From a virus, in UHGV virus genome UHGV-0170246: a stretch of 45,982 nt of DNA. The stretch is one strand, 5' to 3'. Positions within the stretch are counted from its first letter, which is position 1, and each line of letters begins with the position of its first letter. A program made the translations under genes and the position numbers. Of this stretch, positions 4,120 to 19,804 are shown one piece after another. The notes under the pieces were generated by a model that did not search any database, had not been told where the DNA came from, and worked only from the letters and a program-made list of their open reading frames with translations.

Positions 4120-4500
4120 ATGAGCATGATTAAAATCCGCAAAAATGCTTTCCTTAAAATTCAAACTATCCTGGCTGGTTCTGTTGGCGTGATTTGCCGT
4201 TCTTCTTCAAGCCGCATCGATGACGGCTACGATGATGAGTACCGTGTGTCCTCGTGCGATGAGGCTTTAACCTGGCTGAAGGAGAATCAGGAACGTGCCC
4301 AGGTATATCTGGAAACAGAGAACGGCAATCAGATGCTGCGTATTAGCGGTCGTTATGGATTTGAAACTACATTCATGGCCTATTTTAATCAGGCTTACTT
4401 TGACAAGGAGCTGGCCTGGTACACTGATCGCATGAGCAAAAGCGAGCCAGCCCCGATTACACCGCCGAACAATAAACCATTTTTATTCCTCGTTAAGTAA
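4120..4500 (+). CDS. Hypothetical protein, first gene after cassette A
   Basis: 126-aa ORF with GGAG RBS inside the conserved leader. Confidence 0.5.
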   Translation: MSMIKIRKNAFLKIQTILAGSVGVICRSSSSRIDDGYDDEYRVSSCDEALTWLKENQERAQVYLETENGNQMLRISGRYGFETTFMAYFNQAYFDKELAWYTDRMSKSEPAPITPPNNKPFLFLVK

Positions 4501-4506
4501 ACACAA

Positions 4507-4533
4507 TGCGCAAAGTGTCATTTTGACACTTTG
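4507..4533. promoter_or_regulatory. Perfect 27-bp palindrome CGCAAAGTGTCA-TTT-TGACACTTTGCG
   Basis: Read directly; upstream of the HTH gene at 4564; a partial copy (AAAGTGTCATTTTGA) is at 13021-13035. Confidence 0.45.
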
Positions 4534-4563
4534 CGAGTGTTAATATTGTGCGAGGAGGATGCT

Positions 4564-4836
4564 ATGACGGGTTATGAATTGAAATTATGGCGTCGTGGGA
4601 TGAACTGGACGCAGGAGCGAGCCGCCGAAGAATTTGGGATATCGTTGGCTACATATAAGCGATATGAGAAGGGGGAGCCGCCGAGGGTCATTGAGATGGC
4701 CATTCGCGTTCTGTCGTTTGACGATATGGTTAAGGATCTTTCACACCTTGATAAAGATGCGATTCTGTTAAGGCTGCAAACCCTTGTATGGGAAAAGGTT
4801 AAAGTGTCGTCAGAATTGGAACAAGGGATCAAATGA
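4564..4836 (+). CDS. HTH XRE-family transcriptional regulator
   Basis: Internal ATG of ORF 4531-4836 preceded by GAGGAGG; HTH segment WTQERAAEEFGISLATYKRYE. Confidence 0.5.
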   Translation: MTGYELKLWRRGMNWTQERAAEEFGISLATYKRYEKGEPPRVIEMAIRVLSFDDMVKDLSHLDKDAILLRLQTLVWEKVKVSSELEQGIK

Positions 4837-4884
4837 TCCTTTACGGATCGTTTTATGGTGGTGTAATGTAAGCGCCAGAAAGAC

Positions 4885-4910
4885 AAAAACCGCCTTGCCG
4901 GGCGGTTTTC
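4885..4910 (+). terminator. Possible rho-independent terminator
   Basis: Hairpin CCGCC-ttgccg-GGCGG extended by A-T pairs, then TTTT. Confidence 0.35.
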
Positions 4911-5607
4911 AGTCTGAAATTTAAATCTTGCTTGGTAGGCTGGATTTAAAAAGACACCTCTTGATTGGGGCGGCTTTCTTGCGTCTAAAGATAATCAAAT
5001 CTTTTTGCGCCTGCAACCCCTTTTTTACTGGTGCCTGTTTCAGACTCACGCTCGCGTCGTTGTCTTTGCCACTTCGTTGGGTTCGGTGTTTTTGGGCGGA
5101 GTGGCGCGCGGGTATGCGTACAAGGGGAAAGTGTGCTGACGCAAGCTAGGAACAGCGATCTAAACTAAGTCGAGTCTGAGAAAGGCAGGAGTGCGACAAC
5201 TCGCCTGTGCTCAATGAGCAGAAGAAGGTATATCAGACGACCAATGGCATGATTGTGGGCCACAGGGCGCACACGGCGGCGAAGCATTGGAAACGATGTG
5301 GAGCTATCTGGTGGCATGAGTTCCGGTACTCGATCTCGAGCTTTTTTTGATGCTTTTGAGAAGGGGCCGGAACTCCGGTAAAGGGCACCCTGTATGGGGG
5401 GAGGGGGGGTTGTGTCTGAAGGGTGGCTATCGGTTATGGTGGAATTATGATGCGTAGAAAAGCGAGTTTGCTGCAAGCTATTGGGTCCATTATTTCTTTG
5501 TTTCCGGCAGTTGATCATTTTCGTCATATGGCGACACGTTCGAGTATGGGCTTGGCGCGTGACGCTGACGCTATTCGAAAGGATTTTCAGAAAGTCTCTG
5601 GTGTTGA

Positions 5608-5641
5608 TAAGAGAGAAAAGAGTAAGGGGCCGTAGCCCCTT
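5608..5641 (-). terminator. Rho-independent terminator for the antirepressor gene
   Basis: Hairpin AGGGGC-cgta-GCCCCT just downstream of the stop at 5646; minus strand has a U-rich run after the hairpin. Confidence 0.5.
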
Positions 5642-5645
5642 GTAG

Positions 5646-6791
5646 TTATGGTCTGCTTTTCTGTGCCAGCTTATCAGCACATGTTTTTATCAGATCCTGT
5701 AGTGTCCTGGCTGGCAGGTTTGCATCCAGTACGCTGAGTATGCTGTTGTGTTCTGCTTGGTCGACTACTTTGCCTGTCGGTGGTAGTAGCTTGAGCTGAG
5801 GATTCAGGTTTTCGTCAAAGCTGATAAGTGCTCTGGCGTTTCTGAGCAGATCAAGAAGTAAGGCTGATATCACATTTTCCTGAGTCATTGCTGGCAGACT
5901 TAGCGCCGCTTTGGTTTTCCCTGTTGCCTTGTCAAACTCCTTGATTAGTTCCTTCCTGTAGTTCGGTTCCGTTAATAGCCGATTATGCTCTGTTGCCGCG
6001 CGGATAATCGTTTTTTCCTGGTATAGTCGTTTAGCCAGATCACGCTCGTACTGTGTTTTTAACACGCTGCTGATAGCGTTAAAGGCTTCAATGTAGGCCA
6101 GCTTGATATCTTTCACGCTTGGACCGTCGATGCTCTCCATGAGCAAGGTAAATCCGTCTTTTGTCATGCGATAGATTGTTATTTCGCGGTCGCTTCCTTC
6201 CAGCGGTCGTTGCTCTTTAAAGAAGTGACGCGCCGCAGCTGTGCGAGGAATGCGTAACGCATCGATGGCCATAACGATGGAATTGTTTGTGGTGCTGAAT
6301 GCCTGGGCAACATCGGCTGAGGTTGTGAGTGGCTCGTTGTTGCACACCTTAATGTAATACATTGGTTTAGCGTTGAGCGTATCGACAACCTCACGAGCAT
6401 TGTTTGGTGAGACGGTTACGGTCGCGGCCGTTTGCGCGTTCTGGTTGAAGTAGCAGTCTTCCAGCCGTTCGAATACATCCCACGCCTGATCGGTTTCGAG
6501 CATTTTAGCGTGACGTGCAGCCCCGCGTTCTGTCCAGAGGATGAGGGAGCGGACTTTAGGTGAAACTGGATTTTGAGAGTAGTTTAAAGCTACCCGCAAT
6601 TCTTTAAGGTCATTACCAACAACTTTGAAAAAGTGTTTCCCTTCAACGAAACGTGCTTTGTTCTCATGATGATTCTGGCGAATACGCACCGGCTCAGTGC
6701 CGTAAAGCTGTGCTAGTAACTCGGTAGTAATGACAGGGATTTGGTTATGCAGGATAGGCTGTAGGGTGTTAACGGTCGGAAGCGTTTTCAT
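5646..6791 (-). CDS. Antirepressor-like protein (ORF6N-type N-terminus, Rha-like central region)
   Basis: 381 aa; N-terminal pattern PVITTELLAQLYGTEPVRIRQNHHENKARFVEGKHFFK and internal TTSADVAQAF segment typical of phage Ant/Rha-type regulators (recalled domain patterns). Confidence 0.55.
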   Translation of the reverse strand: MKTLPTVNTLQPILHNQIPVITTELLAQLYGTEPVRIRQNHHENKARFVEGKHFFKVVGNDLKELRVALNYSQNPVSPKVRSLILWTERGAARHAKMLETDQAWDVFERLEDCYFNQNAQTAATVTVSPNNAREVVDTLNAKPMYYIKVCNNEPLTTSADVAQAFSTTNNSIVMAIDALRIPRTAAARHFFKEQRPLEGSDREITIYRMTKDGFTLLMESIDGPSVKDIKLAYIEAFNAISSVLKTQYERDLAKRLYQEKTIIRAATEHNRLLTEPNYRKELIKEFDKATGKTKAALSLPAMTQENVISALLLDLLRNARALISFDENLNPQLKLLPPTGKVVDQAEHNSILSVLDANLPARTLQDLIKTCADKLAQKSRP

Positions 6792-6979
6792 TTTGCACCT
6801 CCCATAACTACTTTGGTTACGAGGGAGATTTTTGCGTCAGAAACAGCGTTATCGTTGCTGGCGATGCGCATAGCTTCGCGCTCGATGATTTCAGCCAGGC
6901 GGAATTTATCGGCGTATGAGGCTTTCTTGAGAAGGATCTTTACGAGGTTGACGTAATAGTCATGGGGTAAGTTTGTCAT
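6788..6979 (-). CDS. Small hypothetical protein, first gene of the antirepressor operon
   Basis: 63-aa ORF; its stop overlaps the antirepressor start (ATGA). Confidence 0.35.
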   Translation of the reverse strand: MTNLPHDYYVNLVKILLKKASYADKFRLAEIIEREAMRIASNDNAVSDAKISLVTKVVMGGAK

Positions 6980-7394
6980 GGTGATAGTTCCCTTAAAGGT
7001 TAAGGATACTCACCACCGTCTGGTTCCAATCATTGGGTGGTGAGACGTACAGGGTTGGAACTACCGGTCACCATGGAATCCGGCGAGTCTTACGACTCCC
7101 CCGCACGCCCCACCATAATTTGGGTGTAGCAGTGCTTTACGCATAAAAAAACCGCTAACGCGGTATGCGCCATGATGATTATCGGGGTTCCAATCCCGAC
7201 CGTAGATTTTGCTACGGCTCGGAAAGTGTCCACCAATGGCGCATTTATGTCAATACAGAGGGATTTTAACAGAGACAACCACATAGCGTGGGTTTATTGG
7301 TAGGCAGAAACAAAAAAACCGCCCTATTGAGGACGGTTCTTTCGTGCTGATCGGATTCGCGGTCCTTTCAGCATAACGTCGTTGTACTAATACA

Positions 7395-7414: not shown

Positions 7415-7644
7415 AACTACATTCTTACCCAACTGAGGTGAATAGTCCACTATTCATATAAAAAAATTTAGCTCATTAGCTCATGCAAAATGAAGGTTTT
7501 TAACTTATTTACGTGTAATCTCATGTAATAAAAGCGTTTTTTATTCCTTCATTATGAAGGGTATGACGTGTAATATGGCTTGGGGCCTTTCCGCCGATTC
7601 GCACCCGGGCACTGACTTTCAGGAAAGGATTATCCACTTGCCGT

Positions 7645-7664
7645 ACCACGCAGGCACAAACAGC
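7645..7664. repeat. Direct repeat copy 2 (ACCACGCAGGCACAAACAGC)
   Basis: See copy 1. Confidence 0.6.
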
Positions 7665-7728
7665 GTGCTTGCTCTCGCGTCATTTTCGTCGGTGGGGATG
7701 CCGTGAAACGGCCTGTAAGGGCCACACA

Positions 7729-7851
7729 ATGAAAAAATACTACATGTGTATTTTTATCGTTGTTACTGGAGCTTTGTTTACGCCACATGGGGAGGGTTGG
7801 AAGATTACTGATAACGCTCTGAATGTGACGATAAACATTAGCAGCAAGTAG
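7729..7851 (+). CDS. Possible small hydrophobic peptide (40 aa)
   Basis: In-frame ATG of ORF 7669-7851; one predicted transmembrane stretch (YYMCIFIVVTGALF); followed at once by a strong terminator; no recognisable family. Confidence 0.2.
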   Translation: MKKYYMCIFIVVTGALFTPHGEGWKITDNALNVTINISSK

Positions 7852-7856
7852 CGATT

Positions 7857-7880
7857 AGGCCCCTTCGGGGGCCTTTTTTA
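7857..7880 (+). terminator. Rho-independent terminator
   Basis: 7-bp stem AGGCCCC/GGGGCCT with TTCG tetraloop followed by TTTTTT. Confidence 0.75.
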
Positions 7881-19728: not shown

Positions 19729-19804
19729 GGCCCCTTAGCTCAGTGGTTAGAGCAGGCGACTCATAATCGCACGGTCATCGGTTCAAATCCGGTAGGGGCC
19801 ACCA
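19729..19804 (+). tRNA. tRNA with anticodon CAU (Met, or Ile2 if lysidine-modified)
   Basis: Hand-folded cloverleaf: 7-bp acceptor stem GGCCCCT/AGGGGCC, D arm, anticodon loop CTCATAA, T arm GGTTCAAATCC, encoded CCA; strongly resembles E. coli ileX as I recall it. Confidence 0.85.

Follow-up and report, generated by a model that had tools for sequence, protein, structure and literature searches.

What occupies the long gap between two convergent genes in the virus genome UHGV-0170246? The stretch of DNA analysed here (45,982 nucleotides, one strand; hereafter the window, in which all coordinates are given) contains an interval of about 800 bp, 4840-5645, that a preliminary description had found to be GC-rich and poor in open reading frames (ORFs), and had thought might hold a structured non-coding RNA (ncRNA), an origin or recombination site, or a decayed gene. 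The flanks do converge as was said, with a helix-turn-helix (HTH) protein gene on the plus strand ending at 4836 and an antirepressor gene running 6791->5646 on the minus strand. Positions 4837-5423, which we call the block, prove to be non-coding and conserved, but the 3' ~200 nt of the interval (5424-5645) fall outside the conserved element. We tentatively favour reading the block as a divergent RNA II/RNA I-like antisense-controlled module, plausibly an RNA-primed, protein-independent second origin of replication.

The block has a GC content of 51.4% against 44.7% for the window, with a GC skew of +0.21 (31% G, 21% C). The G-run seen earlier, GGGGGGAGGGGGGG (G6AG7), lies at 5396-5409, and the local dyads resolve into hairpins at 4886-4909, 5068-5105, 5318-5375 and 5624-5641. 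The interval is ORF-poor in that the block has no conserved ORF, although the variable slot that follows it holds an ORF of 62 amino acids (5447-5635), labelled 'hypothetical' in GenBank/RefSeq relatives and the sole annotated feature of the interval there.

This region is 99.8% identical to that of the Yersinia phages vB_YpM_39, 41 and 44, 98-99.8% identical to that of 59 non-mobilizable ~48-kb plasmids from E. coli, E. albertii, E. fergusonii and Klebsiella aerogenes, and 88-89% identical to that of three Salmonella plasmids. Among the relatives is the 48.5-kb plasmid of E. coli ATCC 25922, whose annotation is that of a myovirus-type phage-plasmid with an IncFII-family RepA, a HigB-type toxin-antitoxin pair, ParA, an XRE repressor with early operon, and lysis, head and tail genes. 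Of 5426 complete E. coli genomes 72 carry the block, nearly always on a plasmid of ~48 kb. Since this count equals that of the terminase (72) and is close to that of RepA (71), the block is a core element of a ~48-kb, vB_YpM_39-like family of enterobacterial phage-plasmids. BLASTN searches for near and distant relatives, run on phages, plasmids and E. coli genomes, located no copy of the block outside this family and no similarity in phage records beyond it, and exact-motif scans of viral, genome and metagenome collections returned family members and chance matches (L017, L019 and L044), with no distant homologues. The Prokaryotic Genome Annotation Pipeline (PGAP) places no annotation over the block. 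Our literature searches found no paper on the three Yersinia phages and no report of an RNA II/RNA I-like module in enterobacterial phage-plasmids. The name pSLy3 was considered for the family and rejected, as pSLy3 belongs to the SSU5 supergroup.

Comparison with related elements had been suggested before, with a lack of both transcription and conservation taken as a sign of junk or a remnant. Conservation is plainly present. In 21 lineage pairs identity over the block is 88.5-97.8%, against 70-81% for the HTH gene in most pairs, and in 20 of the 21, across five genera, the block has changed less than the coding sequences beside it; the one exception is a mosaic pair. Against the Salmonella relatives the block is 87% identical and the flanking coding sequences 67%. 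Furthermore, the block, at 89-90% nucleotide identity, comes after each of the HTH homologues from K. aerogenes, Citrobacter amalonaticus, Yokenella and Salmonella, which have only 68-76% amino acid identity, and in every relative the HTH gene lies directly upstream of it. Homology in the relatives runs from the HTH stop codon to 5422-5423 and then breaks.

This conservation is not that of a protein gene. The blocks of relatives carry single-base indels, one a 50-nt deletion and another a 22-nt deletion. When ORFs of at least 10 codons on both strands were checked across relatives, no plus-strand ORF was conserved; they are broken by indels or by the 50-nt deletion, and the tiny conserved plus-strand ORFs that remain are hydrophilic and lack a ribosome-binding site. 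A minus-strand ORF of 50 codons (5165-5317) stays open in all seven representatives that were checked, as it does in 28 of 30 aligned sequences, but its variable sites are spread 9:7:9 over the codon positions, with 7-10 non-synonymous against 2-4 synonymous codon changes. With neither a conserved frame nor third-position bias, both a protein-coding gene and a pseudogene were rejected, and with them the idea of a decayed gene. The alignments show strong purifying selection on a block that is not protein-coding. The same data bear on whether the locus is an unannotated small protein or a type I toxin gene with an antisense RNA, as in hok/sok. A long structured RNA with a short antisense, as predicted below, resembles that layout, the 5165-5317 frame stays open, and a ryfA-type locus is nearby; nevertheless that frame has no coding signature and there is no conserved small hydrophobic plus-strand ORF, and we regard this explanation as very improbable.

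In order to investigate the block as an RNA we used an alignment of six sequences and then one of 24 distinct sequences, to which five lineages were added to give 29 distinct sequences (a 30-sequence alignment). The plus strand folds below shuffled controls (z = -2.6 for 4912-5430; z = -3.7 for a 589-nt version with an empty slot). Both strands fold better than shuffles; however, the RNAalifold consensus reaches -180 kcal/mol with 164 pairs on the plus strand against -116 kcal/mol with 124 pairs on the minus strand, and 17% of paired cells on the plus strand are G-U, where the other strand would have A-C mismatches. In the 24 distinct sequences the 164 pairs are 99.5% canonical, and nine are changed on both sides, compared with 3.9+-1.3 in shuffles (0/500 reach nine) and 0-2 in slid controls. 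For the robust set, namely the 115 pairs in helices that recur whatever fold window is used, the 29 distinct sequences give 99.4% canonical pairing and 48 doubly changed cells, compared with 14+-2.8 when shuffled (0/500) and at most 11 in slid controls. Hence the substitutions, as aligned, show preservation of extensive plus-strand RNA secondary structure. The covariation evidence is real but modest because the family is narrow (83-100% identity). Of the contents first envisaged for the gap, it is the structured ncRNA that this strand-specific covariation bears out.

The covariation signal is strongest in the hairpin at 5068-5105, where five of 13 pairs are changed on both sides; this hairpin lies wholly inside the 50-nt deletion of a metagenome relative (L036), which removes it cleanly. 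A hairpin at ~4927-4943 (within 4920-4950) is also supported. In the domain at 5153-5258 the changes are one-sided (GU->GC, GU->AU, UG->UA) and always keep the pairing. The loop of the hairpin at 5284-5299 is invariant across five stem versions (GCAUUG, GUGCUG, GUACUG, GUGUUG and GCGUAG). The 37-nt core at 5110-5146 contains a GGGG stretch ~290 nt before the block end. Masukata and Tomizawa are said to have found in 1990 that a G-rich loop of RNA II at -265 nucleates the ColE1 hybrid, and the core may be its analogue, as judged from position. The G6AG7 run is kept in relatives with homopolymer-length changes or a single G>T only, and might act as an R-loop nucleator.

A site acting at the DNA level (for recombination, packaging or protein binding), or a relic of ColE1 cointegration conserved through recent recombination and not function, appears quite improbable against this background. 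The homology break at 5423 is sharp and lies beside the variable slot, the likeness to ColE1 described below is confined to the first ~80 nt, and there is mosaicism: two Salmonella plasmids (L004 and L005) have HTH genes that are 99.3% identical, blocks that are 95.6% identical and different antirepressor modules, which indicates, on the aligned sequences, recombination breakpoints inside the block or at its edges. Yet conservation above that of the neighbours recurs across five genera, and the strand-specific substitutions that preserve G-U pairs point to RNA and not duplex DNA. Moreover, no iterons or repeat arrays were found, and the terminase with the likely packaging region is ~22 kb away.

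The beginning of the block was compared with ColE1 because a minus-strand terminator, a minus-strand promoter ~105 nt from it and a plus-strand promoter together make up the RNA II/RNA I layout. The -35 of the predicted plus-strand promoter is flanked by GATC at 4835-4838 and 4846-4849, the same GATC-N7-GATC as in ColE1. Its hexamers are invariant in the 29 distinct sequences, with variation only in spacer columns 19-22. A terminator scan called a minus-strand intrinsic terminator at 4911->4884 with a U-tract to ~4876; the A5 tract that encodes this U-tract is invariant, and the plus-strand U-tract of the same hairpin varies between 3 and 4. The predicted antisense promoter has the best minus-strand promoter score within 4480-5700, its hexamers are likewise invariant (only two positions vary, both in the spacer), and it lies at +105 to +140 from the predicted plus-strand start, as does the RNA I promoter (P_RNAI) in ColE1. 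In each of the E. coli, Salmonella and K. aerogenes versions the 108-nt antisense predicted from it has a three-hairpin fold, which it shares with pMB1 RNA I.

Profiles were compared with a set of six diverse ColE1-type origins. A profile of the block matches the region of the first stem-loop (SL1), the RNA I terminator, in two of the six (nhmmer, E~2.5e-4), and the hairpin at 4886-4909 matches that of Col440II/pSC2017030-4k at ~24/26 positions. In the other direction, a ColE1 promoter and SL1 profile run over the whole 46-kb window has its top match at 4828-4909 on the plus strand (19.7 bits, E=1.6e-5). The promoter alone (4831-4876), scored upstream of the hairpin with a profile of the six ColE1 promoters, gives 16.1 against a null of -13.7+-7.6, a score reached by 2 of 5990 windows. 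Collectively these matches show, by sequence similarity, homology of the first ~80 nt to the RNA II promoter and SL1 of ColE1-type plasmids. Together with the RNA II/RNA I-like layout, this turns the origin envisaged in the preliminary description into a definite hypothesis. The distance from the predicted start at 4876 to the end of conservation at 5423, both ends taken from sequence, is 548 nt; ColE1 RNA II is ~550 nt long (PMC8683028). In our ColE1 alignment a G6 run lies ~20 nt before the origin. We also considered whether the likeness to ColE1 extends into the body of the RNA, to the RNA I promoter or to the region near the origin; the profile and anchored tests do not support this. Separately, the next-best match in the window to the ColE1 SL1/RNA I-terminator profile (~15 bits) is a plus-strand hairpin at 7308-7345 (AAACAAAAAAACCGCCCTATTGAGGACGGTTCTTTCG), with no promoter similarity upstream.

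Features of the block and its surroundings (coordinates in the window)
Feature	Position	Strand	Details
HTH gene promoter and inverted repeat	4509..4549	+	-35 TTGACA 4523-4528, -10 TATTGT 4544-4549
XRE-type HTH protein gene, 90 amino acids	4564..4836 (RefSeq start 4564)	+	Pfam HTH_3, phrog_6962
ColE1 RNA II-like promoter	4831..4876	+	-35 TTTACG 4840-4845, 18-nt spacer, -10 TAATGT 4864-4869; predicted start ~4876
Predicted structured G-rich RNA, ~548 nt, RNA II-like	4876..5423	+	Predicted start to end of conservation
Hairpin AAAACCGCC-TTGCCG-GGCGGTTTT	4886..4909	both	SL1-like on plus-strand RNA; intrinsic terminator on minus strand
Predicted antisense RNA promoter	4988..5016	-	-35 TTGCAG 5016-5011, 17-nt spacer, -10 TATCTT 4993-4988, start ~4981
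Candidate cis-antisense RNA, RNA I-like, ~108 nt	4981->4874	-	Three stem-loops, the last being the terminator
Hairpin with strongest covariation	5068..5105	+	GCCACTTCG/CGGAGTGGC versus GCTGTCTCG/CGAGATAGC and others
37-nt core GGGTATGCGTACAAGGGGAAAGTGTGCTGACGCAAGC	5110..5146	+	Invariant in six-sequence alignment, almost wholly so in 30-sequence alignment
Multi-helix domain closed by CAGCGATC/GATTGTGG	5153..5258	+	Predicted in all three fold windows
6-bp hairpin with GAAA (GNRA) tetraloop	5284..5299	+	Three pairs with double changes
Long hairpin, ~21 bp, GAGTTCCGGTAC...GGGGCCGGAACTC	5318..5375	+	Five pairs changed on a single side, all still paired
G6AG7 run	5396..5409	+	14-27 nt before end of conservation
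Variable cargo slot, outside the conserved module	5424..5623	+	Here the 62-amino-acid ORF 5447-5635
Bidirectional terminator hairpin	5624..5641	both	Common to plus-strand transcription unit and convergent antirepressor operon
Antirepressor gene, ORF6N/Rha	6791->5646	-	Convergent with HTH gene

Based on this layout, a speculative model for the favoured reading can be drawn. The weak, Dam-site-flanked promoter at 4840-4869, perhaps with read-through from the presumably autoregulated HTH promoter (4523-4549), a possible second source, would start an RNA at ~4876. Being G-rich and tightly folded, this RNA would be a poor substrate for Rho, and would run ~548 nt to the end of conservation past G6AG7 before stopping at the terminator that it would share with the antirepressor, accessory genes being insertable ahead of that terminator. 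The opposite promoter (5016-4988) would make an antisense of ~108 nt, ending at the 4909-4886 terminator and complementary over its whole length to the 5' end of the long RNA. Made constitutively, the antisense would pair with the 5' hairpins of the long RNA, limit its productive folding and hold the origin in check. A long RNA that escaped would act as pre-primer: its G-rich 3' part would form a persistent hybrid with the C-rich template around 5396-5409, to be processed into a primer and extended by host enzymes. The outcome would be rightward initiation independent of RepA, either auxiliary or in the lytic phase.

During lytic growth a phage-plasmid has to escape the tight control that keeps its copy number low, and the annotation of the element lists no recognisable genes for lytic replication. 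Enterobacterial phage-plasmids are generally held to initiate replication with proteins (RepA, RepL). RNA-based origins have a precedent in mycobacterial phage-plasmids (Wetzel et al. 2020, PMC7157519). If the reading is right, a temperate phage carries an initiator-free, antisense-throttled origin, and thereby a simple way of switching between life as a low-copy plasmid and lytic replication at high copy; the ColE1 principle would extend far beyond small multicopy plasmids, and the lytic replication of a family without recognisable replication genes could be explained. Even without priming, the block would be a rare structured ncRNA of more than 500 nt in E. coli, Salmonella and Klebsiella, missed by PGAP and Rfam. 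It also lends itself to study, as ATCC 25922, in common laboratory use, has it.

Several findings weigh on the other side. An IncFII-type RepA replicon is already present, with repA ~3 kb upstream of the block, MOB-suite assigns no Col replicon to these plasmids, and both of the natural deletion derivatives examined keep repA together with the block, none having the block alone. Nothing beyond the first ~80 nt can be aligned to ColE1. The full profile of the six ColE1 origins, the whole-origin hidden Markov model criterion of PMC8683028, has no match on the block, no ColE1 sub-profile past the first 120 columns matches, so that the near-invariant origin-proximal segment is absent, and an anchored origin-proximal test is marginal (4/300) and driven by the G-run. 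The RNAI model of Rfam scores weakly (18.1 bits, E=1.9, gathering threshold 47), a match not reproduced in the Salmonella versions, and the antisense promoter region has no sequence similarity to P_RNAI. Both transcription starts are predicted from weak consensus matches, and an automated promoter scan called neither. Finally, the covariation comes from few lineages of a narrow family, and long-range helices, including the partner of the G-run, shift with the fold window. Because RepA is present, no Col type is assigned, the derivatives keep repA and the likeness covers only ~80 nt, we do not file the block as a member of the ColE1 family; we propose, by analogy, that it works like one.

These points leave a real chance, although we think it the doubtful side of the question, that the block makes a stand-alone, large structured RNA with a regulatory or structural role and a cis-antisense, which has kept or borrowed the ColE1-type promoter and first hairpin and primes no DNA synthesis. 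Possible roles are action in trans on host or phage targets, or titration of RNA I from co-resident ColE1 plasmids. The absence of origin-proximal ColE1 sequence beside an existing RepA replicon favours it, as do the SL1 almost identical to that of Col440II-type plasmids, the covariation-supported fold with its GNRA hairpin and multi-helix domain, and a promoter-to-terminator unit that is complete in relatives with an empty slot. However, no complementary antisense target was found elsewhere in the 46-kb window, no Rfam family matches, and coincidence would have to account for a length so close to that of RNA II, for where the antisense promoter sits and for a G-run near the end. More specifically, and in our view unlikely, the block may represent a new class of ornate RNA of ~0.55 kb, restricted to enterobacterial phage-plasmids, that retains the ColE1-style promoter, hairpin and antisense brake for a non-priming job. 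Such a job might be to form a structural or catalytic particle of RNA alone, or to act as a decoy that manipulates co-resident ColE1 plasmids or host RNA-binding proteins in the plasmid-prophage state.

Possible transcription from upstream suggests another account, in which the block is a long structured 3' untranslated region of the HTH gene, a 5' leader for the cargo genes, or both. Its G-rich fold would stabilise the mRNA, shield the untranslated RNA from Rho and bring polymerase to the inserted genes. The HTH promoter has the top sigma-70-like score on the plus strand within 4480-5700, the hairpin at 4886-4909 is a poor plus-strand terminator with only 3-4 U, cargo ORFs between the block and the terminator have no obvious promoter of their own, and the excess of G over C would disfavour Rho loading sites. 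We nevertheless consider it improbable: many relatives without cargo retain the block, its conservation is far above that of the HTH coding sequence, and the ColE1-like promoter and the antisense unit go unexplained.

The covariance-model scan proposed in the preliminary description did not turn up a known RNA in the gap. No Rfam family fits it: at E<=10, 4400-6000 gives only chance-level matches, and the ROOL, GOLLD, OLE and HEARO models have none. Matches to the RNAI and Phe-leader families were rejected, as both stem from the terminator hairpin. At gathering thresholds the window yields only ryfA, C4, isrK and a tRNA. Other candidates were dropped. Flanking direct repeats (4853/5434) were taken as chance, the left copy varying in relatives and the right copy lying in the variable slot. 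A CsrA sponge was set aside because the GGA count is not above a composition estimate made by eye. For a XerCD/cer-like site, GCGTACAA resembles a XerC arm, judged by eye against the consensus, with no XerD arm.

The slot after the block is empty in some relatives, in which the terminator starts ~5 nt past the block, and in others holds the 62-amino-acid ORF or a membrane protein of 211-220 amino acids (phrog_23465, with an N-terminal membrane helix and no Pfam match; L005 3127-3771, L006 3133-3768). The insertion borders have a short AAGGG repeat in common. A Rop-like role for the 62-amino-acid ORF was dropped: it has no Pfam or PDB match, and its model is a single helix of low confidence.

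Upstream, a perfect 12+12 inverted repeat, CGCAAAGTGTCA-TTT-TGACACTTTGCG (4509-4535), overlaps the -35 of the HTH promoter and is unique in the window; it is probably the operator of the HTH protein itself. In vB_YpM_41 (L002, ~1567-1889) and also vB_YpM_44, an insertion of ~323 bp with ~27-bp terminal inverted repeats (GGGGTTCCGTGGGAATTTCTGCGATAA...) and a duplicated GCTATG lies exactly at the HTH start codon, parting the ribosome-binding site from the ATG. This looks like a miniature inverted-repeat transposable element, and vB_YpM_39 and the window are without it. Shorter relatives of the HTH protein (63-68% identity, about half the length) occur at 3001-3225 in L060/L061 and 3001-3183 in L063, with no block after them, in apparent leading regions of large conjugative plasmids beside ssb, psiA/psiB and a ParB_N gene. 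Missing from one of the natural deletion derivatives, pCREC-544_3 (L064; circular, 32,182 bp), are the repressor, the early operon, ParA and the lysis genes; it retains repA, the toxin-antitoxin pair, the HTH gene, the block, the antirepressor and the structural genes.

On the other side the block adjoins a P1-like immunity I operon, in which Rfam places isrK (7145-7218) and C4 (7033-7120), both on the minus strand, followed by an ORF of 63 amino acids (6788-6979, minus strand, phrog_7886) and then the ORF6N/Rha antirepressor. The C4 target motif c4-a1b1 scores 36.9 bits in the Salmonella relative L004. Just past the isrK and C4 RNAs there is a full-length match to ryfA RNA (7581-7879, plus strand, 134.6 bits, gathering threshold 80), at a site without PGAP annotation in the ATCC 25922 plasmid. 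Since ryfA loci encode TimP, a small toxin of type I, the match may mark a toxin-antitoxin locus carried by the plasmid. A tRNA with a CAT anticodon (19729-19804, plus strand) is called tRNA-Met by ARAGORN, and its equivalent in the ATCC 25922 plasmid is tRNA-Ile by PGAP.

Several known systems invite comparison. The replicon that P1 uses in lytic growth needs RepL and has its origin inside repL; Heinrich and colleagues reportedly described it in 1995 as P53-kilA-repL with an antisense P53as RNA, next to the c4/ant immunity region. The block would similarly be a second, lytic-phase replicon beside c4/ant and restrained by antisense, here proposed only, but no repL is present in the annotated element and the block is convergent with ant, not downstream of it. 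The large RNAs ROOL, GOLLD, OLE and HEARO are similar in size class (~0.55 kb), in association with phages and in a multi-helix fold with a GNRA tetraloop, the fold here being predicted; the block is much narrower in taxonomic range and has, unlike them, a ColE1-like control region.

Mycobacteriophages have RNA-based prophage origins, in elements that lack repA and with the RNA beside parABS (PMC7157519). Likened by description only, these too are transcribed non-coding phage-plasmid regions, of ~400-500 bp, implicated in replication with no dedicated initiator acting on them; for the block, transcription and such a role are predicted. The block differs in lying between a toxin-antitoxin/HTH region and an antirepressor operon, in unrelated hosts, and with an IncFII_repA family repA ~3 kb away it does not belong with origins of elements lacking repA.

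ColE1-type (ColRNAI) replicons give the closest parallel. Shared with them are the GATC-flanked -35 and TAATNT -10, a first stem-loop (the RNA I terminator) 8-10 nt past the start that hardly differs from the one in Col440II-type plasmids, a predicted promoter on the opposite strand ~105-140 nt downstream that would give a three-hairpin antisense of ~108 nt, a predicted structured sense RNA of ~550 nt, and a G-run ~20 nt before the end, followed in relatives with an empty slot by an A-rich stretch and a T-run hairpin. In contrast to them, the block has no rop gene in its element and sits not in a small multicopy mobilizable plasmid but in a 48-kb phage-plasmid with an IncFII-type RepA.

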